Positions 3,262 to 44,500 of a stretch of 64,000 nucleotides of DNA are shown here, in pieces; positions within the stretch are counted from its first letter, which is position 1, and the number at the start of each line of letters is the position of its first letter. The stretch lies in IMG/VR virus record IMGVR_UViG_3300028534_000021, positions 13,549 to 77,548 of that record; one strand, 5' to 3'. Below the pieces are notes generated by a model. That model was not told where the DNA came from. It was given only the letters and a program-made list of their open reading frames with translations, and did not search any database. The translations under genes were made by a program, and so were the position numbers. The DNA comes from a virus.

Positions 3262-4980
3262 ATGATACAAGAATTAAAAAAATTAAAATTTTTAAAAGAT
3301 AATTTAATGTTTAATCAAAGTACTATTAAAAATAGAACTGAAGAACAAAATAATTTTTTAAAAGAATTATATGAAAAATATCCATTTTTAGAAGAATATA
3401 AATTATCATATTTAATAAATATTTTAAAAAAATATAATCCAGAAGATTGCAAATGTTTTTTATCTGAATGTAATCATTCTAGAATTTATATACATAATCA
3501 CAAACGTTTAAGAATCAGTTGTAAAGAACATACTAAACATCCAGAAGTAATTAAAGAATCTAAAAAAATTCGTAAAATAAAAACTCAAAAAACAAACTTA
3601 GAAAAATATGGTGTCGAAAATGTGTCGCAATCTAAAGTTATAAAATTAAAAAAAGAAAAAACTTCTTTAAAAAATTTTGGAATTCGCAATCCACAACAAT
3701 TAAATAAAATAAAAGAAAAAAGAAAAATAAAATATTTTGAAAAAACTGGTTATTATAATCCTAGACAAAATCCAGAAGTAATTCAAACTACTAAAGATAA
3801 TAATATAAAAAAATATGGTTATTCTCATTATATGAAAAATCCAGAATTAAAAAAAGAATTTTTTAATAAACAATTAATTAAAAAAGGGTATATGTATTCA
3901 AGACAACAAAATAGAAAAAATTTTAAAGATTTAAATAAAGAATTTATAATTGATAAATTCTTAAATAAAAAAAAGAATTTTTTATTGAATGAATTTAAAA
4001 CATATTTTGGTTTTTTAGATAATACTGAACCATATAAATATCTTAAAAAATTTAATATACCTTATATTAAATTAACTGGAACTTCTAGAGCAGAAGAAGA
4101 AATTACGGAATATATTTTATCTTTAAATCCAAATATAAAAATTATAAAAAATTCAAGAGATATTATTAAACCACTTGAATTAGATATTTATTTACCGGAA
4201 TATAATTTAGCTATAGAATATAATGGTCTATATTGGCACAGTTATGGTTTAAATAATATCAATGAATCTCAATCCGATTATTTATTTCAGCGCTCAAGAC
4301 ATAAAGAAAAAACAGAATTATGCGAAAGTAAAAATATTAACTTATTTCATATTTTTGAAAATGATTGGAAAGATAAAAAAGAAATTATTAAAAGCATGAT
4401 TAAAAATAAATTGAAATTAAATCAAAATAAAATTTATGCTAGAAAATGCCAAATCAGAGAAATTGATTCAAAAACCCCGAATAATTTTTTAAAAGAAAAT
4501 CATATACAAGGTTCGAGTAATTCGCAATTTAGATATGGTTTATTTTATAATGGGGAATTAGTATCCATTATGACTTTTTCAAAAAGTAGATATAATAAAA
4601 ATTATGATTATGAATTAGTAAGATTCTGTTCCAAAAGAAATTATAATATTATTGGAGCAGCCGGAAAATTATTAAAAAATTTTCAAAAGATATTTAATTA
4701 TCCAAGTATAATTTCTTATGGAAATAGAACTTTTTCAAGTACTAAAAATAATGTTTATTTATCATTAGGATTTAAACATATTAAAAATAATAATCCTGAT
4801 TTAAAATTTATTTCCAAAGACTGTACTCAAATTATACCAAGGGAATATTTTATGAAACATAAGTTAAAAAATATACCAGATTTTATATATCATAAAAATT
4901 TATCAGTTAATGATAATATAGTAAAAAATGGTTATAGAATTTTACATGGTCCTGGAACAGCGGTATATGTTCTTAAATAA
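3262..4980 (+). CDS. Hef-like free-standing homing endonuclease (PD-(D/E)xK/Vsr-type nuclease)
   Basis: N-terminal TNLEKYGVENVSQ-type repeats; PLELDIYLPEYNLAIEYNGLYWHS; KIYARKC/NHIQG/YELVRFCS C-terminal domain. Confidence 0.85.
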   Translation: MIQELKKLKFLKDNLMFNQSTIKNRTEEQNNFLKELYEKYPFLEEYKLSYLINILKKYNPEDCKCFLSECNHSRIYIHNHKRLRISCKEHTKHPEVIKESKKIRKIKTQKTNLEKYGVENVSQSKVIKLKKEKTSLKNFGIRNPQQLNKIKEKRKIKYFEKTGYYNPRQNPEVIQTTKDNNIKKYGYSHYMKNPELKKEFFNKQLIKKGYMYSRQQNRKNFKDLNKEFIIDKFLNKKKNFLLNEFKTYFGFLDNTEPYKYLKKFNIPYIKLTGTSRAEEEITEYILSLNPNIKIIKNSRDIIKPLELDIYLPEYNLAIEYNGLYWHSYGLNNINESQSDYLFQRSRHKEKTELCESKNINLFHIFENDWKDKKEIIKSMIKNKLKLNQNKIYARKCQIREIDSKTPNNFLKENHIQGSSNSQFRYGLFYNGELVSIMTFSKSRYNKNYDYELVRFCSKRNYNIIGAAGKLLKNFQKIFNYPSIISYGNRTFSSTKNNVYLSLGFKHIKNNNPDLKFISKDCTQIIPREYFMKHKLKNIPDFIYHKNLSVNDNIVKNGYRILHGPGTAVYVLK

Positions 4981-9284: not shown

Positions 9285-10190
9285 ATGCCTAAAAAATTAA
9301 CCCAAGAAGAAGTTATAAAAAGATTTAAAGAAGTTCATGGAGATAAATATGATTATTCAAAAGTTATTTATAAAGGAACTTCAACTAAAGTAGAAATCGT
9401 TTGTCCAGAACATGGAAGTTTTTTTCAAAAACCAAATTCGCATTTTCGAAAAGTAGGTTGTCCTAAATGCGCCAAAATAAAATTAGGAAAATTAAAGATA
9501 TCTAAAGTTAAAAATAGTATTGTTATGGAATTTCAAAATGTTCATGGAGATAAATATAATTATTCGAAAGTTAATTATAAAAATTCTAATACTCCAATAG
9601 AAATAATATGTCCCGAACATGGAAGTTTTTTTCAATTATATCATGATCATAAAAATGGTTCTGGTTGCCCTATGTGCGCTAATATTTTAAAATCTTCGAA
9701 AATGAAAAATTCAAAAGAAGATATTATCAGGATTTTTAAAAGTGTCCATGCATCTTATAATTATTCGAAAGTTAATTATAAGAATACTACTACTAAAGTA
9801 GAAATAATATGTTCGAAACATGGTAGTTTTTGGCAAAGTCCAATGTCTCATCGTGCCGGAAATGGCTGTCCCAAATGCTCAGAATCCAAAGGTGAACGAA
9901 GAGTTCGAGAATTTTTAGAATCTAATAATATTAAATATTCCCAAGAAATTAAACTCTTTGAGAATTATAGATTTGATTTTTACTTAGAAGATTTAAATAC
10001 TGTCATTGAGTATGATGGAAAACAACATTACGAACCGGTAAAATATTTTGGTGGTTTAGAAGGATTCTTAAAGACTCAAGAACGAGATAAAATTAAAACA
10101 GAATATTGTTTAAAAAACAATATAAGAATAATTCGAATAGGATATTTTGAAGATATTAAAGAAATTCTGGAAGGTTTTTTAAATGCCTAA
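9285..10190 (+). CDS. homing endonuclease with three Zn-binding DUF723-like repeats and a C-terminal PD-(D/E)xK nuclease
   Basis: Repeats VHGDKYDYSKV..CPEHG.F.Q....H....GCPKC; RFDFYL...IEYDGKQH. Confidence 0.85.
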   Translation: MPKKLTQEEVIKRFKEVHGDKYDYSKVIYKGTSTKVEIVCPEHGSFFQKPNSHFRKVGCPKCAKIKLGKLKISKVKNSIVMEFQNVHGDKYNYSKVNYKNSNTPIEIICPEHGSFFQLYHDHKNGSGCPMCANILKSSKMKNSKEDIIRIFKSVHASYNYSKVNYKNTTTKVEIICSKHGSFWQSPMSHRAGNGCPKCSESKGERRVREFLESNNIKYSQEIKLFENYRFDFYLEDLNTVIEYDGKQHYEPVKYFGGLEGFLKTQERDKIKTEYCLKNNIRIIRIGYFEDIKEILEGFLNA

Positions 10191-11067
10191 AAAATTAACT
10201 CAAGAAGAAGTTCTAGAACGGTTTAAAAAAGTTCATGGTAATAAATATGATTATTCCAAAGTTATTTATAAAGGAACTTCAACTAAAGTAGAAATTATCT
10301 GTCCAGAACATGGGAGTTTTTTTCAAAAACCAAATGATCATTTTAATGGCGCGGGTTGTTCAAATTGCGCTGGTAATAATAAAAAAAATACTTTTCAGAT
10401 AATAAAAGAATTTAAAAAAATTCATTTTAATAAATATAATTACGATTTAATCGATTATATTGGAACTAAAAAGTATGTTTTAATAAAATGTAATAAATGT
10501 TTAAACACTTTTAAACAGACCCCAAATAATCATTTAATGGGTAATGGTTGTCCTAATTGTAATGGTAAATTTAATAAATCTTTAGAAGAAATCATAAAAG
10601 ATTTTAAAAAAATTCATTTGAATAAATACGATTATTCCAAAGTTAATTATAAAAATAATACTACCAAAGTAGAAATTATTTGCTCGGAACATGGTTCCTT
10701 TTGGCAGGAGCCATATAATCATAAAAATGGACATGGCTGTCCCAAATGCTCAGAATCCAAAGGTGAACGAAGAGTTCGAGAATTTTTAGAATCTAATAAT
10801 ATTAAATATTCCCAAGAAATTAAACTCTTTGAGAATTATAGATTTGATTTTTACTTAGAAGATTTAAATACTGTCATTGAGTATGATGGAAAACAACATT
10901 ACGAACCGGTAAAATATTTTGGTGGTTTAGAAGGATTCTTAAAGACTCAAGAACGAGATAAAATTAAAACAGAATATTGTTTAAAAAACAATATAAGAAT
11001 AATTCGAATAGGATATTTTGAAGATATTAAAGAAATTTTAAAACCTTTAATAACTGGTAGTAACTAA
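10183..11067 (+). CDS. second tandem DUF723-like homing endonuclease
   Basis: Same architecture; 10733-11037 appears identical to 9862-10166. Confidence 0.85.
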   Translation: MPKKLTQEEVLERFKKVHGNKYDYSKVIYKGTSTKVEIICPEHGSFFQKPNDHFNGAGCSNCAGNNKKNTFQIIKEFKKIHFNKYNYDLIDYIGTKKYVLIKCNKCLNTFKQTPNNHLMGNGCPNCNGKFNKSLEEIIKDFKKIHLNKYDYSKVNYKNNTTKVEIICSEHGSFWQEPYNHKNGHGCPKCSESKGERRVREFLESNNIKYSQEIKLFENYRFDFYLEDLNTVIEYDGKQHYEPVKYFGGLEGFLKTQERDKIKTEYCLKNNIRIIRIGYFEDIKEILKPLITGSN

Positions 11068-16957: not shown

Positions 16958-18814
16958 ATGCAATTAAATAAAACTATTCAAACAAACGCTTTTTTAAAAA
17001 ATGATCCATTCAGTTCGACATTTCCAGACTCTTTCGTAGGCGCCGGATTAAAAGATATATATTTACCAGATTTCACAAATCAAAGAATTTCTGTAATTGT
17101 TAGTCTTAATGGGACGGAGATGGTAAATATTACTAAAAAATCTAGTGGAGTTATGGCGACTGGTTCTTTAAGATACCTTAATGCTTTGATAATGCCTTCA
17201 GTAACTATTTCCGAAACATCCGAAATAGTTTATAGTATTACTAAAGATTCTTTCGTAAATAATTATAATGTTGATGATCCAATGGATTCAGGGATTATAA
17301 AACAGGGAGATTTAGATATTACTATAGATGGTAGAACAGATGCTCCAGAATTAAATTATTTAGTAACTGGTGTATTTACTGTTATAGGAACTGCTGGAAA
17401 TATGACTTTAGATATAAATAAACCTTTTTCAATAATTCCTATTGATAATAATGAAATATTTTTAAAATTTAGAACTCCTGATACCGGAGATACTTTATCA
17501 GCAATTAAATTCAATAATTATACAAATAATATTAATTTATTTAGTACTAGTAAAAAAGAAGAAAATCCAATTATTAGAAAAACTCAATTCCAAGATTGTT
17601 TAAAAATCCAAGCTAGTGATGTTCAAGCTGGCGATTATTTTGGATATGCAGTCATTAAAGGAGAAAAGTATACTATCGTTGGAGCATATGGTGAAGATAC
17701 GACTACCAATGATGCGGGATCAGTTTATATATACAATACTGAAAAAGATCTTGAAATTAAAATCCAAGCTAGTGATGCTCAAACTAAGGATTATTTTGGA
17801 TATGCTGTTTCAGTATATAATAATACTTTAGTTGTTGGAGCATATGGAGAAGATACGACTGCTAACGATGCTGGATCAGTTTATATATATGATTTAACAA
17901 ATTTTGATGTTGATAGTATTAAAGCATCTGAAATTAAAATCCAAGCTAGTGATGCTCAAACTAAGGATTATTTTGGATATGCTGTTTCAGTATATAATAA
18001 TACTTTAGTTGTTGGAGCATATGGAGAAGATACGACTGCTAACGATGCTGGATCAGTTTATATATATGATTTAACAAATTTTGATGTTGATAGTATTAAA
18101 GCATCTGAAATTAAAATCCAAGCTAGTGATGCTCAAACTAAGGATTATTTTGGATATGCTGTTTCAGTATATAATAATACTTTAGTTGTTGGAGCATATG
18201 GAGAAGATACGACTGCTAACGATGCTGGATCAGTTTATATATATGATTTAACAAATTTTGATGTTGATAGTATTAAAGCATCTGAAATTAAAATCCAAGC
18301 TAGCGATGTTCAATATAAGGATTATTTTGGACATGCTGTTTCAGTATATAATAATACTTTAGTTGTTGGAGCATATGGAGAAGATACGACGGCTAATGAT
18401 GCCGGATCAGTTTATATATATGATTTAACAAATTTTGATGTTGATAGTATTAAAGCATCTGAAATTAAAATCCATGCTAGTGATGCTCAAACTAAGGATT
18501 ATTTTGGATATGCTGTTTCAGTATATAATAATACTTTAGTTGTTGGAGCATATGGAGAAGATGCAGCATCCTCGGATGATGCTGGATCAGTTTATATATA
18601 TGATTTAACAAATTTTGATGTTGATAGTATTAAAGCATCTGAAATTAAAATCCATGCTAGTGATGCTCAAACTAGGGATTATTTTGGATATGCAGTTTCG
18701 GTATATAATAATACTTTAGTTGTTGGAGCATATGGAGAAGATACGACTGCTAACGATGCTGGATCAGTTTATATATATGATTTAGAAGTTCTTAAAAATA
18801 ATTTAAATTTTTAA
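16958..18814 (+). CDS. FG-GAP (integrin-alpha-like) seven-repeat beta-propeller protein, putative adhesin
   Basis: Seven repeats ASD...DYFGYAVSV..NTLVVGAYGED....AGSVYIY. Confidence 0.85.
   Translation: MQLNKTIQTNAFLKNDPFSSTFPDSFVGAGLKDIYLPDFTNQRISVIVSLNGTEMVNITKKSSGVMATGSLRYLNALIMPSVTISETSEIVYSITKDSFVNNYNVDDPMDSGIIKQGDLDITIDGRTDAPELNYLVTGVFTVIGTAGNMTLDINKPFSIIPIDNNEIFLKFRTPDTGDTLSAIKFNNYTNNINLFSTSKKEENPIIRKTQFQDCLKIQASDVQAGDYFGYAVIKGEKYTIVGAYGEDTTTNDAGSVYIYNTEKDLEIKIQASDAQTKDYFGYAVSVYNNTLVVGAYGEDTTANDAGSVYIYDLTNFDVDSIKASEIKIQASDAQTKDYFGYAVSVYNNTLVVGAYGEDTTANDAGSVYIYDLTNFDVDSIKASEIKIQASDAQTKDYFGYAVSVYNNTLVVGAYGEDTTANDAGSVYIYDLTNFDVDSIKASEIKIQASDVQYKDYFGHAVSVYNNTLVVGAYGEDTTANDAGSVYIYDLTNFDVDSIKASEIKIHASDAQTKDYFGYAVSVYNNTLVVGAYGEDAASSDDAGSVYIYDLTNFDVDSIKASEIKIHASDAQTRDYFGYAVSVYNNTLVVGAYGEDTTANDAGSVYIYDLEVLKNNLNF
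17602..18784 (+). repeat. intragenic 177-bp tandem repeat
   Basis: 59-codon units; units 2-4 appear nucleotide-identical, unit 6 has an extra codon. Confidence 0.9.
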
Positions 18815-18829
18815 GATAAAGGATAGTAT

Positions 18830-19231
18830 ATGTATTACTTAATTAACGATACTGGGACTACTATACAAGTCCCAGATTGGCAAAGAATATATTATAAAGA
18901 TTTAACTTTAATAGGTAAAAAAACTACTGATTGGAATGCACCAATCCAAGAGAACTTCTTAAAGATAGTTGATCGATTAACAAAAATAGAACAACTTTTA
19001 GCGGTACCAGAGGTTAATAAAACTTCTTATTTGGGCTTATTAAATCTTGATAATAGTCCAGAAATTATAGCATTTGTTGATACTCCTTCGGAAATTAATA
19101 AAACTTCTTATTTAGGTTTATTAAATCTTGATAATAGTCCAGAAATTATATCATTTGATGATATTCCTTTAGAAATTAACAAAACTTCTTATTTAGGTTT
19201 ATTAAATCTCTATATAGAGGAAGCCACTTAA
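18830..19231 (+). CDS. small virion-associated protein with 27-aa C-terminal repeats
   Basis: LTLIGK...W...QENF motif (paralogue of 32367); ExNKTSYLGLLNL three times at an 81-bp period. Confidence 0.65.
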   Translation: MYYLINDTGTTIQVPDWQRIYYKDLTLIGKKTTDWNAPIQENFLKIVDRLTKIEQLLAVPEVNKTSYLGLLNLDNSPEIIAFVDTPSEINKTSYLGLLNLDNSPEIISFDDIPLEINKTSYLGLLNLYIEEAT

Positions 19232-19294
19232 CTTATTATAGACCCTTAGATATAATAGATATAATATGTATTAAATTATATCAAAGGGTTTAAA

Positions 19295-19951
19295 ATGTCA
19301 AAAAAAATACAAACTATTACGATTACCGAAGCTCTAAGTACTCTAAAATTATTAGATAAAAAAATATCTAAAAAATTAAGATTACTTGGAAGATCATCAA
19401 ACTTCGTTATGGATTATAAAGTTGGTTCTGAAAAAGGACAATATACTTTATTAAACGAAGATGAATTAAAAAAACAAGCTGAAAGTACCTTAGATAGTAT
19501 TACTAATATTATAAAAAATAGACGTGCTCTTAAAGCTAAAATTGCTCTTAGCAATGCTGTTACTGAAGTAACGATTGCTGAACAAGTAATGACTATTGTA
19601 GAATGCATCGAATATAAAAATAGTATTCAACAAGATAAAGAATTATTAAGTTCATTGGAAAGAATTTATAGTTCGGTTCAAAATGGTTATCAAGAAGAAT
19701 TGGAAGATGCGAGAGAAAAAATTACAGAACTTCTTAATGCTAAACTTTCTTCTGATAGTAATAAAAATAGTAATTCCGAAGTACTAGCTAAAGAACTTCA
19801 ATGTATTTATAATCCTGCGCTAATGGATCCTATTAATTTAGGTAAGTACATAGAAAATCTTCGCGAAAGTATAGAACGTTTTGAAACGGATGTTGATGTA
19901 GTACTTAGTATATCTAATGCTCATACATTTATAGAATTACAGTCTCTATAA
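19295..19951 (+). CDS. two-repeat coiled-coil protein (recalled as DIP1984/DUF6847-like; unverified)
   Basis: Internal duplication: ITITEAL...IALSNAVTEVTI and MTIVECI...LSISNAHTFIEL, each enclosing a long helical segment. Confidence 0.65.
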   Translation: MSKKIQTITITEALSTLKLLDKKISKKLRLLGRSSNFVMDYKVGSEKGQYTLLNEDELKKQAESTLDSITNIIKNRRALKAKIALSNAVTEVTIAEQVMTIVECIEYKNSIQQDKELLSSLERIYSSVQNGYQEELEDAREKITELLNAKLSSDSNKNSNSEVLAKELQCIYNPALMDPINLGKYIENLRESIERFETDVDVVLSISNAHTFIELQSL

Positions 19952-19958
19952 ATAAACC

Positions 19959-20251
19959 GTCCTAAAATATCGAAAAAGATAAATATTAATTGGCCGGTGG
20001 TCCATAACCACCAACTTAAATTATTTTAAATTTTATTAAAATTTGGAGAAAATTACATTAATTTGATCGCTATAAGCACTGCGTTTAAAACGTAACAAAG
20101 CTTAACTAATAAAGAATAAAATTTAACCAATAAAATTTAATTAATAACTTTTAAGATTTAATAACTAAATAGTAAAAAATATTAAATCCTAGAGAAGTTT
20201 TGGAATATTGATATCCTTTCTTTTGTACTAGGCTGATATTTTAGGACACCA
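19959..20251 (+). ncRNA. putative ~290-nt structured ncRNA with heptamer array and ACCA 3' end
   Basis: GTCCTAAAATATC (19959-71) pairs perfectly with GATATTTTAGGAC (20235-47), then ACCA; internal GGTGGT/ACCACC and CCTAG/CTAGG helices; 12 x AANNNNT at 20097-20180. Confidence 0.7.
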
Positions 20252-20262
20252 TACATAAATAT

Positions 20263-20339
20263 GGGCATGTAACTCAGTTGGTTAGAGTCCTCCGCTCATA
20301 ACGGAGTGGTCATAAGTTCGAATCTTATCTTGCCCACCA
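20263..20339 (+). tRNA. tRNA with CAT anticodon (Ile2 or elongator Met)
   Basis: GGGCATG/CTTGCCC acceptor (one T-T), CTCCG-CTCATAA-CGGAG, ATAAG-TTCGAAT-CTTAT, ACCA. Confidence 0.9.
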
Positions 20340-20342
20340 AAC

Positions 20343-20425
20343 GGATCTTTGCCTGAGTGGTTAAAGGAGCGGGTTGCTAACTCGTCTAGGTAAAACTAGC
20401 GTCGGTTCGAATCCGACAGGATCCA
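20343..20425 (+). tRNA. tRNA-Ser(GCT)
   Basis: GGATCTT/AGGATCC acceptor, GCGGG-TTGCTAA-CTCGT, long variable arm CTAG-GTAAAA-CTAG, GTCGG-TTCGAAT-CCGAC; no encoded CCA. Confidence 0.85.
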
Positions 20426-20444
20426 AATTAAAGAAATAAATAAT

Positions 20445-20520
20445 GCCGTTTTAGCTCAGTTGTTAGAGCACTTCATTGGTAGTGAAGAGGTCATTGGTTA
20501 GATTCCAATAATCGGCACCA
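20445..20520 (+). tRNA. tRNA-Thr(GGT), atypical
   Basis: Cloverleaf with CTTCA-TTGGTAG-TGAAG and ACCA, but D-loop lacks GG and T-loop is TTAGATT. Confidence 0.75.
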
Positions 20521-20588
20521 AAATATCTATTTATAAAAGTATAGATATTCTTAATATAATCATAGGAGAAATTCTTTGATTTAAACAT

Positions 20589-20663
20589 TCCGGATTAGCT
20601 CAGCGGTAGAGTAGGTGACTGTTAATCACTTGGTCACTGGTTCGAATCCAGTATCCGGAGCCA
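20589..20663 (+). tRNA. tRNA-Asn(GTT)
   Basis: Canonical cloverleaf TCCGGAT/ATCCGGA, GGTGA-CTGTTAA-TCACT, ACTGG-TTCGAAT-CCAGT, GCCA. Confidence 0.95.
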
Positions 20664-20684
20664 CTTTTTACACTTTTTACACAT

Positions 20685-20760
20685 TGTCCTTTAGCTCAGT
20701 TGGTTAGAGTACATCCCTGATAACGGTGAAACGAAAGTTCAAGTTCTGGAAGGACAACCA
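20685..20760 (+). pseudogene. degenerate tRNA-Ile(GAT)
   Basis: Perfect acceptor TGTCCTT/AAGGACA + ACCA, intact D-arm and CTGATAA loop, but the T-stem (GAAAG/TCTGG) does not pair. Confidence 0.7.
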
Positions 20761-20952
20761 AATATGCCTAATTTTAGGCACCAACGAGAATAAGTCTTAT
20801 TTTTATGTAACTTCGGGAGACTTAAAAATCCGTAAGACCGCAGTTGGGCATCTGAGGAAAAAGCCAACGAAACTAAGAAGCCTACTATAACACGCCTTTA
20901 GAAATAAAGCACGAAGTTAGAGGAAATTAAAATTCTTAGGAGTAGGCATGTT
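20761..20952 (+). ncRNA. putative pseudoknotted RNA with group I intron-like topology
   Basis: Crossing helices TAACTTCG(20808)/CGAAGTTA(20912) and GCCTACT(20880)/AGTAGGC(20941); nested GTTGG/CCAAC and CTTTA/TAAAG hairpins; no ORF. Confidence 0.5.
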
Positions 20953-20958
20953 AATTAT

Positions 20959-21040
20959 GGAAATATCGTTTATGTTAGTAAGACCTTAAAGAATACTCTC
21001 TCACTTCTTTAAGAATTTGGTGCGGATCCAAATATTTCCT
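20959..21040 (+). ncRNA. tRNA-like element with an elongated anticodon arm
   Basis: GGAAATA/TATTTCC acceptor, GTTT/AGAC D-stem, 9-bp CTTAAAGAA/TTCTTTAAG stem with 11-nt loop, TTTGG-TGCGGAT-CCAAA T-arm. Confidence 0.55.
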
Positions 21041-21216
21041 CCTTTCTTTAAAAATTGTTATATTATCATCTTAGATGTTTTGTTCGTACGCTCATGTTAA
21101 ACACTCCGTTTATATAAGTTGAGTCACCTCCTTTAAATAAATAATAAACCTATATAACATTTTTAACCTTTGATTAAATTGCTTTAAGTTCGCGCGAAAA
21201 GCTCTCACAACTCTCT

Positions 21217-21276
21217 TGGGATACTATTTTAGTACTTTTACTCTGAAGTACTTTCTTAGTATCCCACCTCCTGTCG
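21217..21276 (+). terminator. long hairpin + TCCTGTCG element (copy 6), ending the RNA island
   Basis: TGGGATACTA...AGTACTT/AAGTACT...TAGTATCCCA then CCTCCTGTCG. Confidence 0.6.
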
Positions 21277-21321
21277 TTAAATTTACAAATTATATCAATT
21301 AAATTATTTATTTAAAACGTA

Positions 21322-21404
21322 ATAACTATCAATAGTTAACTATTGGTACCACCAGTTGATAGATAACTATACAACTATAGATACCACGTACTATCGATAG
21401 TTAT
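21322..21404. repeat. ATAGTTAACTAT palindrome array
   Basis: ATAACTAT-ca-ATAGTTAACTAT-15 nt-ATAGATAACTAT-ac-AACTAT-18 nt-ATAGTTAT. Confidence 0.75.
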
Positions 21405-21463
21405 TCAGCAATTATCTAACCAGCTATATAGATATTCTAATTAATCCTAAATAAGGAAAAATT

Positions 21464-22051
21464 TTGGAATTAAAAAAACATATTATAATTAACTTATTTG
21501 CTGGACCAGGTTCTGGGAAAAGTACCACGGCATCAAATATATTCAAATATTTTAAAAAGAATGGGTACAATTGTGAACTAGCTTCAGAAGTGGCAAAAGA
21601 TTTGACCTATTCTAAATCAAGGGCTATTAATAATCAATTTTTTGTAAGTGCTTCGCAGTATCAGGAAATATTTAAAGTACTTGATTACTGGGATAGTATT
21701 GGAAAAAAAGGAATTCTAATAATGGATAGTCCAATTATAATTGGATTAGCTTTTTATGAATTCTATACAGGTATTTTTGATAAATCTTTAAAAGATATAT
21801 TATTCTCTAAATTCTTACCAGAATTAAACAAAGATTTTATATTTAAAAATATAAATATATTTTTAAATAATTCTAATATAAATTATGATCCTGTTGGTAG
21901 AAATGAAACAGAATTAGAAGCGTCTAATATAAATTTTATGATTAAAAATTTACTTAAGAATAATAAAATACCTTATAAAAATATAGATAGTACTCATTCG
22001 AAAAGTATTAATAAATACTGTCTTAAAAAAGTAAAAAAGCTTTTAAAATGA
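21464..22051 (+). CDS. P-loop NTPase/kinase (AAA_28/NadR-kinase-like)
   Basis: INLFAGPGSGKST Walker A, EVAKDL, ILIMDSP Walker B, YDPVGRNE; TTG start after AAGGA. Confidence 0.8.
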   Translation: MELKKHIIINLFAGPGSGKSTTASNIFKYFKKNGYNCELASEVAKDLTYSKSRAINNQFFVSASQYQEIFKVLDYWDSIGKKGILIMDSPIIIGLAFYEFYTGIFDKSLKDILFSKFLPELNKDFIFKNINIFLNNSNINYDPVGRNETELEASNINFMIKNLLKNNKIPYKNIDSTHSKSINKYCLKKVKKLLK

Positions 22052-40428: not shown

Positions 40429-41520
40429 ATGAATTTACAAGAATTGAATAATAATGTTAGAACGTTATTATCAAACGGTTGGAATATCTTAGAATTTTTA
40501 AAAAAATTTACGACCGCCGATGCAACTACAGATGTAGATATAGTATTTATTCAAGAAGATACTACAACGGTATCCGAAACATATCCATCTTTAAATAAAT
40601 TAATAGCAACTTTTGATAATTTAGAAGCCTTTGTTGGACCAGAAGGGCCACAGGGTCCACAGGGTCCACAAGGTCCTCAAGGTCTACAAGGACCACGGGG
40701 ACCTCAAGGTATTGATGGAGCAGATGGTCTTGAAGGTCCAACAGGTCCTCAAGGTCCGATGGGTCCTCAAGGTCCTCAAGGTCTATCAGGAAAAGATGGT
40801 GAATCTGGTCCAATAGGACCAGTAGGTCCAGAAGGTCCACGTGGTCCGGCAGGCGCTGATGGTATAGCTGGTAAAGATGGGGAAATTGGTCCACAAGGGC
40901 CGGCTGGTCCTCAGGGGTTAACTGGACCTACTGGTCCTCAAGGCCCAGAAGGTCCACAGGGTCCTCAAGGTCCAGATGGTCCACAAGGGGAAAAGGGGAA
41001 TATAGGGGAACCTGGCCCACAAGGTCCAGAAGGATCTCAAGGCCCAGAAGGTCAACAGGGTCCTCAAGGTCCAGATGGTCCACAGGGTCCGCAAGGTCCG
41101 CAAGGTCCCGAAGGTCCACAGGGTCCGCAAGGTCTTCCGGGAAAATCGTCATACGATGCTGGAACATTGGGTGGATACTCTCTATCTTATTTTGTAATGA
41201 ATCAAAATATAGATGCTACCTTAGATGATGATGATTCTGTTTTTTATAATGATTTTACTAGATTTTCAGAAATACAAACTGGTTTGGTATCAATTCCAAG
41301 TTTTAACAGTACTACTAAATTTTTTAACTTGGAATCAATAGAAGAAGATATTTTAGAATTAAAATATGTACAGGATAATGGAGATGATACAGTTACTGAT
41401 TTAGGTACAATAGTTAATATGGACACAGTTAATGAAACTATAGAATTTTTTGGAAAATCTATTTCTGATGTAACGGATTACTCTGATTTTACAACAGCTT
41501 ATGAGGCTGAATTAGCATAA
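40429..41520 (+). CDS. collagen-like fibre protein
   Basis: About 57 uninterrupted Gly-X-Y triplets (40636-41148); DAGTLGG motif afterwards. Confidence 0.9.
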
Positions 41521-41532
41521 CAAGGATAAAAA

Positions 41533-44500
41533 ATGGCTGAATTAAGCACTGATTTTTATATAGATGAAAATAATTATTTCTATGGGTGGTTACAAAATTC
41601 CCAAAAAGGCTATGCAGGTCTTTATTGGGAAAGTAAGGAAGATGAAACTGGAAGTATTCTTTATCCAAAAAATAGAAAGGATAGATTTCTAAGATCTTTA
41701 GACGAATCTTGGGTAACTAGAGAATATGTTAGATGGACTTTAGAAGATGAAATTGGTTTTGTAAATGCCGATGGAACTTGGTCATTTAAAACAGATAAGA
41801 ATAAAAACGCTTACGTTTATAATAATTTAAATATTACTAGAAATGTTACTGCAGAAGCTCTTTATGGAGATGGTTTTAATTTATCGAATTTAGATGCTTC
41901 TAAAATTAAACAAGGTACTCTTAATAAAGATAGATTACCTAATTTAATTAATGCTAGTACAACTGGAAATGCTAGAACTGCCACAAGTCTTGCTAAAGAA
42001 ATTAAGTTAAGCCTTAGTGGTGATATTTCTGGGGAAATTTCATTGGATGGAAGTACTGATAAAAATATAGAAGTAATCGTTTATGATGATAGCCACTTAC
42101 ATGAAGAAAGTTATTATAATAAAACAATTTCCGATAATAGATTCTTAGGTATTAACGCTACTGCAGTAAATGCGGATTTATTGGATGGTAAAGATAGTAC
42201 TTATTTTGCTACTGACAAAGCTCTTTTAGAACAAAAGGCTCGTATAGACGATATAATGGAATTAAGTACAACCGACTTAGATTCATTTAGAGAAATAGTA
42301 GATTTAATTAATAGTATCGATACTGAAAATGATGAAGCTCTTGCTACATTTTCTAAAAATATTATTGATAGTTTAAATACCGAAATTCAAAGAGCTGAAA
42401 CCGTTGAAAATGAAATAGTTGATTCTCTTAACGAAGAAATTCAAAGAGCTGAAATAACCGAAAATGAAATAGAATTAAATCTTAATAATAGAATTGATGA
42501 AGAAACTTCTAGGGCTAAAGAAAAAGAAAATGAAATAGTTAATTCTCTTAACAAGGAAATCTTTAGAGCGCAAGATTCGGAAAACACCTTAACTGATAAT
42601 TTAAATACTGAAATAGAAAGAGCTAAAGGTGAAGAACAATATCTTCAGGATCAAATAGACAATAATAATTCTAAACTTACAAATGATATTAAAATATTAG
42701 ATGATAAGATAAGCACAGAAACTTTAAGAGCGACAACAGCAGAAGGCGAATTAAATAATAAAATTCTTGCCGAAAATGCTAGGGCGGTTAAAGCAGAAAA
42801 AGATATTATTGAATTATTAGAAGACGAAACGGCTAGAGCTTTAGAATCGGAAAAAACAAATGATCAAAATTTAACAGAAGAAATTTTAAGAGCTTCTCAA
42901 GAAGAGAAAAGAGTACTAGATTATTTAAATGCGAGAATAGATACACAACGAGCAAGAATAGACGATATTCTAAATTTGAGTACAACTGACGCAGATTCAT
43001 TTAAAGAAATAGTAGATTTAATTAATAGTATCGATACTGAAAATGATGAAGCATTTGCTTCTTTTGCGGTAAGTACCAATACTAAAATAGAGGATTTAAA
43101 TACTAAAATAGAAGATGAAACTTCTAGAGCTACAGATACCGAAAATAATTTATCAGATGATATTGTTAACGAAACTATTAGAGCTAAACAAGTTGAACAA
43201 GATCTCCAAGATCAAATTAATGAAAATAATCAAAATTCCAACGATAAAGATGTTATTTTAGATGCTCGTTTAACAGACGAAGTTCAAAGAGCAGTAGTAG
43301 TTGAAAAAGATTTGTTATTAAAAATAAATGATGAAATTGATAGAGCTACTAAAGCAGAATTAGATTTAGATACTAAATTTACCGATAGTATTAATACAAC
43401 TAATAATAGTATTTCTGTACTAGAAGCTAAAACAATTTTAGCTATTAATGAGGAAACCGATAGAGCAAAAACTGCAGAAAATCAGGTATTTGATGATCTC
43501 AGCGGCAGAATTAAGGCAGAGGAACAATTAGCAAGAATTAATGAAAATAATCTTGGTATTAGAATAGATGATACTGGTACTAAAATAGAAGATGAAATAT
43601 CTAGAGCTATTCTAAGAGAAGATGATCTTCAAGAACAGATTAATGAAAATAATAACCATGCTACAACAGTAGAAAATGATTTACTTACTAAATTAAATGA
43701 TTTAATTTCTAGTAATAAAGAAGAACATGATGATATAAATCTTAGATTAAATAATGAAACATTAAGAAGTATTGAGAAAGACAATAATTTAAATGATGCT
43801 ATAAATATTGAAGTTCAAAGAGCTAGTACTAAAGAAAAAGATTTGGAAAAAGCTATAGAAGCAGAAAAAGTTCGCATAAACGATATTCTAAATTTGAGTA
43901 CAACTGACGCAGATTCATTTAAAGAAATAGTTGATTTAATTAATAATGTCGATATAATAAATGATCAGGCATTTGGTAATTTTGTATCTAGTACTAATCA
44001 AGAATTAGATACCATTAGAAATGATTTAGATAATGAAATTCAGCGAGCGACTGCGATAGAGGACGAATTGGATACTAGACTGACTAATGAAACTTTAATC
44101 GCTAGAACTGCAGAAGATGATTTAAATACTAAACTTAATACAACTATTAATTTATTAAATGATGAAGTTCAAAGAGCTATAGCGGCGAAAAATGATCGTT
44201 ACACTAAAGCAGAATCTGATGAAAAATTCTTAGGTATTAATGATAAGGCTCAAGATTCATATAGACTTAATGGACAAACGGCCGAAGATTTTAAAGAAGC
44301 TTATTTAGCTGCAGTTGGTGATCCAACGGCTAACTCAGGTACAACCACTTCATCTTATGTAATTCAAAAAGATGATTGTACTGTTTATTGGGATGAAGAT
44401 AAAACAATTAATTTTATAACTTTAACTAATAGTCCAGTTGGAGATATTATAGATTTAACTATTACCACGACAACGGGAGAAAATATAACGATTAATGATA

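Follow-up and report, generated by a model that had tools for sequence, protein, structure and literature searches.

A structured RNA with a heptamer array recurs downstream of PHROG_1491 genes in phages, giant-virus-like contigs, and bacteria

Between a gene for a 218-aa protein and a cluster of tRNA genes, the viral DNA analyzed here carries a noncoding stretch whose two ends can pair with each other. We asked whether this stretch encodes an RNA, whether that RNA belongs with the protein encoded upstream, and what the pair might do. The window (the whole 64,000-nt stretch that was analyzed) belongs to a viral record of 80,844 nt that is 29% complete and encodes major head and tail sheath genes. 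Its best DNA matches were to runs labeled as epibiont and hydrothermal vent metagenomes, and the assembly was confirmed by DNA contigs from four runs. The source virus is most likely a jumbo myovirus. The features of the locus are as follows.

19228..19256, + strand: weak sigma-70-like promoter match (10 of 12 positions)
19295..19951, + strand: open reading frame (ORF) of the 218-aa PHROG_1491 protein (profile E value, 4.1e-51)
19959..20247, + strand: candidate structured noncoding RNA of 289 nt, closed by P1
19959-71/20235-47, + strand: P1 terminal stem, perfect over 13 bp, starting 7 nt past the stop codon and enclosing 263 nt
19972..19990, + strand: GAA junction and the 5' strands of P2 (19974-79/20219-24) and P3 (19984-90/20207-13)
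19991..20012, + strand: H-type pseudoknot, with stem 1 TGG 19991-93/CCA 20002-04 and stem 2 GGTGGT/ACCACC
20013..20094, + strand: variable region, which in other members differs widely in length and may hold a whole tRNA
20095..20178, + strand: array of 12 in-phase heptamers, pyrimidine-A-A at positions 2 to 4 in all; likely protein-binding tract
20184..20234, + strand: 3' core with AAAT, P6 (20188-92/20228-32), P7 (20202-04/20214-16), the 3' strand of P2, and the CT junction
20248..20251, + strand: ACCA past P1, present in the window and in 3 of 53 RNAs of the family
20263..20760, + strand: five tRNA genes (Met, Ser, Thr, Asn, and Ile), with tRNA-Met starting at 20263

The initial annotation had described an ORF followed by a 13-bp stem 7 nt past its stop codon, an ACCA, and then tRNA-Met, and all of these were located where it had placed them. 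Its CGAAAA and CCTAG/CTAGG landmarks were found, as was the heptamer array, with 12 in-phase units. The GGTGGT/ACCACC pairing is also present, but it forms stem 2 of an H-type pseudoknot and not the simple hairpin described at first. Two long-range pairings, P2 and P3, were absent from that description, and P3 runs into a hairpin loop (that of P7). Folding of the window region was better than that of 100 of 100 shuffles (z = -4.28). Perfect 13-bp inverted repeats with 200- to 400-nt spacers occur three times in the window, so the 13-bp stem alone is within chance, and conservation in homologues is needed to establish it. The two other repeats lie at 1909/2296 and 57885/58105. Rfam gave no gathering-score match to the element and no RNase P/MRP or other meaningful match at E values up to 10, and neither ARAGORN nor Rfam called a tmRNA or tRNA on it. 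The 12 indels that were listed for a variant all spare the stem arms and the array, and one lies beside the pseudoknot, at 20012.

No plus-strand terminator was found across 18700-21500, the gap between the gene and the element included. The tRNA cluster is probably cotranscribed. The promoter match may drive the 218-aa gene, the RNA, and the tRNAs together; it counts as a lead only, because sigma-70-like matches are rarer in the region (6) than in shuffles (15.6). A search for RNA sequencing runs containing the element found none, and four RNA runs that were mapped gave it no coverage, a result that does not speak for its absence. The surroundings hold several further elements. The gene at 16958-18814 encodes a 618-aa protein whose seven FG-GAP repeats include several that are near identical in DNA. 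A 133-aa ORF with three copies of a INKTSYLGLLNL motif lies just 5' of the 218-aa gene (18830-19231); it has no family match and occurs in a longer version in the relative L188. Past the last tRNA, a 700-nt noncoding stretch (20760-21460) contains several hairpins and was matched by no Rfam model at gathering score. At 3262-4980 and 9285-11067 lie several HNH/homing endonuclease genes, which belong to related families and include a tandem pair. No RVT_1 reverse transcriptase (retron, DRT, or telomerase-like) was found in the 29%-complete record or among the neighbors scanned or annotated.

Searching viral contigs with the single protein returned no homologues, which were found with an alignment-based search. 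In all, 99 homologous loci were gathered, and the 95 with at least 450 nt downstream were counted; four shorter ones were left out. RNAs were recognized by a parser based on the two closing stems and the junction motifs and by R1, a covariance model of the 3' core. An RNA core was present downstream of the homologue in 92 of the 95 loci, near-duplicates included, with 82 identified by the parser and 10 more by R1. Among the loci added by R1, L062 has only a partial core, L203 was matched at an E value of 0.023, and the RNA of L191 is approximately 1.4 kb away. Three loci lack the core: L029 and L064, which are near identical to each other and retain only heptamers, and L193, where the gene is present with no RNA within the 2.5-kb flanks. 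In control runs, the parser accepted 0 of 101 reverse strands and 0 to 1 of 101 shuffles. In the direction from RNA to protein, 6 of 119 loose DNA-pattern matches were real and 113 were due to chance; the gene was upstream in five of the six real matches, and the sixth had 300 nt of flank only. R1 applied to 151 Bacillota genomes gave a sole match, the copy beside the gene, and a looser DNA pattern across whole genomes was uninformative.

The gap between the stop codon and the element was 5 to 38 nt in 75 of the 82 parsed loci. One or two ORFs stand between the gene and the RNA in L006/L188, L190, and L191, with the linkage kept. The inserted small ORFs of L006/L188 and L190 (78 aa and 69 aa, respectively) are unrelated by eye. 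The homologues followed by the RNA include those of T5-like, Bacillus, Clostridium, Ralstonia, Pseudomonas, and vent phages. In T5, it occupies an unannotated gap behind T5.085. An annotated 719-nt stable RNA of T5, rnaX (L005:1-567, T5 40848-41566), is located 2 kb from T5.085, and in a Clostridium-type prophage locus a drum RNA (RF02958; L015:3907-4014) lies about 430 nt 3' of the element. Rfam searches of further loci returned nothing of RNase P/MRP at E values up to 10 (7 loci) or at gathering score (20 loci). The co-varying terminal stem and the heptamer tract thus recur behind homologues in other large phages, as the initial annotation had anticipated, and neither the window element nor the elements at the other loci searched belong to a known Rfam family. 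On the strength of this co-occurrence, the co-varying stems, the pseudoknot, the 7-nt period, the near-constant array span, and the spread over phages, giant-virus-like contigs, and bacteria, the element is almost certainly a real conserved RNA.

The anatomy of the RNA was derived from 53 nonredundant members, from which L018 and L034 had been removed beforehand because P6 was misregistered. The RNAs are 246 to 429 nt long, and P1 has 11 to 25 bp. From the 5' end, P1 is followed by GAA, the 5' strands of P2 and P3, the H-type pseudoknot, the variable region, the heptamer array, and AAAT. The 3' part consists of P6, a linker, P7 (the loop of which pairs with P3), the 3' strand of P2, the 3' strand of P6, CT (sometimes CA), and P1. 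The GAA junction was found in 51 of the 53 RNAs and the pseudoknot in 44, compared to 3 to 6 in shuffles; the nearest relative (L006/L188, 75% identical) has a compensatory A-U pair in pseudoknot stem 2. Cognate strands paired more stably than noncognate strands in P2 (-4.9 versus -1.3 kcal/mol) and P3 (-7.1 versus -4.4 kcal/mol), while a control region gave -4.2 versus -4.0 kcal/mol. None of 20,000 permutations beat the cognate pairing for P2 or P3, compared to 3,946 of 20,000 for the control segment, in tests that ignore relatedness. The covariation of P1 and P6 is partly circular, since both served as selection criteria; P2, P3, and the pseudoknot did not. An additional pair of columns alternates between G-C (21) and U-G (17) in 41 rows and may represent a tertiary contact.

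The variable region contains an entire tRNA-Ile in L191 (2437-2510) and a tRNA-Val in L039 (3197-3270), and some GOLLD RNAs likewise hold embedded tRNAs. Excision of the tRNA would leave a two-piece RNA held together by P1 to P3. L028 has a tRNA-like fragment in the same region. A frameshift or read-through signal was considered and rejected, as the pseudoknot is 40 nt beyond the stop codon and shifts away from the gene in some members.

The 7-nt period of the array was evident as identity peaks at lags of 7, 14, and 21 nt (0.096, 0.077, and 0.054 above background), and no such peaks were found in the variable region of 28 RNAs. The core motif occurred at a spacing of 7 in 164 instances, compared to 13.6 in shuffles, and position 3 of the heptamer is A in 97% of units. 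When the RNAs were anchored at P6, the peaks began at 17 nt and continued to about 90 nt, the signal stopping approximately 90 to 97 nt before P6. The motif that starts the array could be located in 20 of the 53 RNAs and was 94 to 97 nt from P6 in 17 of these. The array span is therefore near 94 to 97 nt while RNA length varies from 246 to 429 nt. With one path-count setting, 28 of the 53 RNAs had 11 to 13 units; across four settings, the medians ranged from 8 to 15. Hairpins interrupt the array in some members, leaving the pattern on both sides unchanged. Folded alone, the array was no better than shuffles (median z, -0.16), and the mean pairing probability in whole-RNA folding was 0.55 for the array versus 0.66 for the core. 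Because whole-RNA models still pair about half of the array, these values suggest, but do not establish, that it is single stranded. The constancy of the repeat number is more in keeping with a closed ring than with an open filament or a ruler of variable length.

The initial annotation had also read the ACCA past P1 as a tRNA-like 3' end matured by tRNA-processing enzymes, and this does not hold for the family. CCA occurs within 2 nt of P1 in the same 3 of 53 RNAs, which is about chance level, and is missing from L006/L188. A tRNA starts within 200 nt downstream in just 14 of 50 loci, and a crude scan found a terminator-like hairpin in 11 of 50. As the ACCA is not conserved, tRNA-like 3' maturation is no general feature. 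The ends of the RNA are more likely formed by whatever means are available (RNase P cleavage at a tRNA that follows, a terminator, or trimming to P1) than by a CCA pathway. Within 2.5 kb, tRNA genes were present in 21 of the 50 loci; the 29 loci with no tRNA gene nearby include all giant-virus-like ones of the set.

The protein, by its full-length profile match (E value, 4.1e-51; query 6-215, profile 3-209 of 211), is a member of PHROG_1491. Relatives occur in 716 phage records, T5 among them, and form 1,858 clusters at 50% identity. PHROG_1491 and RefSeq label the family, which includes T5.085 (YP_006913.1), "tail fiber protein." Neither fold nor context bears this label out: fold searches recovered no tail fiber fold, and the gene settings are tRNA or metabolic regions and not tail modules. 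Pfam, NCBIfam, and PADLOC contained no family for the 218-aa protein, enzyme and defense families included, and the best PADLOC match among 17 members was no better than an E value of 0.026. In the structure predicted with AlphaFold2 from 17 sequences (pLDDT, 80; pTM, 0.58), a strand-helix-loop-helix-strand unit occurs twice. The internal duplication proposed at the outset therefore stands in predicted secondary structure; in sequence it does not extend beyond the SNAxT motif, the only part recovered when the halves were aligned (15 columns; E value, 0.001), and BLAST of the two halves detected no similarity. N87 and N208 are invariant across 148 sequences, and positions K18, R23, R76, K80, and K108, near strand ends in both halves, hold a basic residue in 95% or more of the sequences. 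A BFVD structure search at E values below 0.001 returned only uncharacterized phage proteins. In one giant-virus-like contig (L197:1949-3103), the domain is at the end of a 385-aa open frame, possibly as an N-terminal fusion.

A distant link to DIP1984/DUF6847, which had been suggested in the initial annotation, is probable from several weak signals taken together. The best solved relative by profile was 3KDQ (E value, 0.029), a Corynebacterium protein which we take to be DIP1984. It was also the best fold match (Z, 9.7; rmsd, 7.6; 151 of 152 residues), with the next match at a Z of 9.2, although helical bundles reach such Z scores by chance. Alignment with a profile of DUF6847 proteins using hhalign covered 110 columns (E value, 6e-4; probability, 29%). 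At the 27-bit cutoff of PF20935 (DUF6847), the query had no match, and 1 of 32 homologues scored 19 bits, below the cutoff. DUF6847/DIP1984 proteins are about 150 aa long, compared to 200 to 220 aa for PHROG_1491 proteins.

DUF6847 genes, present in 15 of 201 Bacillota genomes, resemble PHROG_1491 genes in being followed by a conserved structured element with a 7-nt period. In the Bacillota, this element is about 200 nt long, has other landmarks, and matches neither Rfam nor R1. Its 7-nt period, before the 3' stem, is weaker (11 sequences; 0 of 2,000 shuffles as strong). The landmarks that had been described 3' of similar proteins thus hold for the phage PHROG_1491 homologues but not for true DUF6847 genes, which carry another RNA. 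The DUF6847-linked elements (L219-L230 and L234) end in a G-rich motif, and in some of them a T-arm-like hairpin and a short run of heptamers occur. Two genomes have tandem DUF6847 gene copies, with the element truncated behind the second copy.

The carriers of the cassette include siphoviruses, myoviruses, giant-virus-like contigs, and nonphage bacterial loci. In five contigs, it adjoins genes for poly(A) polymerase, Rpb2, Rpb3/11, type II topoisomerase, MutS, and DUF5771; by these genes, the contigs read as Nucleocytoviricota, and L027 is named GVMAG. Twelve giant-virus-like proteins clustered in a quick tree (SH-aLRT, 91), with neighbors checked for some of the twelve; L236 dropped out of the tree. 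On bacterial chromosomes (L059, L066, and L067), the cassette lies among signaling genes. No third gene common to the loci was found among the neighbors examined.

We propose that the gene and the downstream element are a two-part cassette that would form a ribonucleoprotein of fixed composition. The twelve heptamers would be wrapped by an oligomer with about 12 RNA-binding sites, likely built from six chains, each with two pseudo-repeats, or from twelve chains. If both pseudo-repeats carry their conserved basic residues at the hub end, a hexamer would give twelve sites. In the TRAP-trp leader complex and in Sm/Hfq rings, a fixed number of short RNA repeats matches a ring of protein sites, and a constant number of short units constrained at positions 2 to 4 only is what a closed ring of identical sites would read. 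Judging from these sequence features, binding of the array by the protein as a closed oligomer is likely. The wrapped array would stabilize and present the compact RNA core, which is predicted to contain multiple pseudoknots. The P1/P2/P6 junction of the knotted ends brings the few invariant bases together, suggesting an active or binding surface there. The core would act in trans, as is likely from the tolerance of the RNA for ORFs between itself and the gene, and would keep translation running, for example as a decoy against host defenses that cleave RNA or tRNA. The frequent location among tRNA genes hints at a link to translation, and use by both phages and giant-virus-like elements hints at a target common to bacterial and eukaryotic hosts. 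A role in guarding translation is possible but tentative. For the proposal as a whole, a ribonucleoprotein of fixed makeup serving as a protected decoy or guard in virus-host conflict over translation, we consider the chances about even.

Four other explanations were weighed. The cassette could be a type III toxin-antitoxin or sensor module, in which the free protein is harmful or active on membranes or filaments and is restrained by the RNA until the RNA is cut or lost. A protein and a repeat- and pseudoknot-bearing RNA do share a single operon here, the spread in bacteria is patchy (as for DUF6847, above), and PMC10889530 places a DIP1984-family gene beside a toxin-antitoxin pair on a resistance plasmid. 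We nevertheless regard this as unlikely, because the protein has no nuclease or toxin family or fold (PADLOC gave nothing below an E value of 0.026), the 7-nt repeats are distinct from the pseudoknot, and the RNA is downstream of the gene. L193 moreover has the gene without an RNA nearby, and the family occurs in hundreds of lytic phage records.

Alternatively, the RNA could be a minimal RNase P/MRP-like ribozyme that cuts viral pre-tRNAs or other RNAs, with the protein ring replacing the specificity domain and the protein subunit. The strands run P1a, P2a, P6a, P2b, P6b, P1b, an order of P1, P2, and P6 that may correspond to that of P1, P2, and P4 in RNase P, and conserved unpaired bases cluster at the junction. 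The U that precedes P6 in 50 of the 53 RNAs would fit as well, but it is replaced by C in the other 3, T5-likes included, and the P2-P6 junctions, at just 2 to 4 nt, are too short for conserved regions IV and V. The tRNA clusters near 21 of the 50 loci could supply substrates, and giant viruses transcribing in the cytoplasm might need an enzyme of their own; hosts, however, own RNase P, the DUF6847-linked RNAs lack the motif, and no RNase P/MRP model matched the window or the further loci searched. This explanation seems rather improbable.

As a cis-acting 3' untranslated region, the element would let the protein control its own mRNA or the processing of the tRNA operon. Whole ORFs intervene in L006/L188, L190, and L191, and the conserved tertiary structure far exceeds the needs of a binding site, which makes this decidedly unlikely in spite of the short gap in 75 of the 82 loci and the continuous path without a terminator in the window; the element is also kept in giant-virus-like contigs despite their different expression system. 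That the protein is a virion part and the RNA an assembly scaffold or length ruler, like phi29 pRNA, would agree with the database label, the long helices, and the fixed repeat number but is very improbable given the lack of a tail fiber fold, the tRNA and metabolic settings, and carriers that have no tail in common.

The ribonucleoprotein of fixed composition remains our preferred reading. In its most far-reaching form, it would belong to an ancient class common to phages, eukaryotic giant viruses, and bacteria, with a 12-site ring on twelve heptamers and a catalytic, stripped-down RNase P-like core, and DIP1984/DUF6847 with its approximately 200-nt RNA would be a sister branch; we think this version unlikely to be correct. 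The findings offer a testable role for a large family labeled tail fiber and a lead for DIP1984/DUF6847. The RNA is unannotated even in the model phage T5, and T5 with E. coli K-12 makes the cassette directly testable. Contigs with giant-virus marker genes keep this architecture, so the function of the RNA probably involves something that bacterial and eukaryotic hosts share.

In literature searches covering mostly nonsubscription journals, no description of the protein-RNA system was found, nor was there a match in the searchable part of the supplements of PMC10690425; parts of the RNA may be among the 10,006 unnamed candidates of that study. PMC10914365 reports PAK_P3 ncRNA1, a Northern-verified RNA of about 210 nt. 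It was rejected as a member, as no homologous gene and no R1 match were found in 54.6 of 88 kb, the ncRNA1 region included. GOLLD and ROOL are described in PMC10383478 as phage noncoding RNAs of unknown role near tRNA genes. Unlike these, the RNA described here has no Rfam match, is half the size, is tied to one protein gene, and has a fixed heptamer array. It may resemble RNase P/MRP RNA in the order of its core helices and in the U next to the pseudoknot helix but differs in having no model match, no specificity domain, no evident regions II to V, and an unrelated protein. The type III systems ToxIN, CptIN, and TenpIN likewise pair a single protein gene with an RNA that contains repeats and a pseudoknot. 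Here, in contrast, the protein is no RNase (Pfam, NCBIfam, and PADLOC gave no match to a ToxN, CptN, TenpN, or AbiF-type RNase toxin), the 7-nt repeats do not form the pseudoknot, and long-range stems close the RNA, which is located downstream of the gene. Compared to the TRAP-trp leader and Sm/Hfq, the protein has a different fold and the RNA is free-standing and structured, not a leader. A terminal stem, a long-range helix, an H-type pseudoknot, and an open tract occur in that order in tmRNA as well, but the RNA has no T-arm, a CCA only rarely (3 of 53), and no ARAGORN or Rfam match. The cassette is a real, widespread, and apparently undescribed protein-RNA system outside RNase P, tmRNA, type III toxin-antitoxin systems, and every Rfam family. 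Structured RNAs as large and complex as this one seldom have a dedicated protein partner, and those known to have one (RNase P, signal recognition particle, tmRNA, retron, and CRISPR RNAs) serve as central machines.
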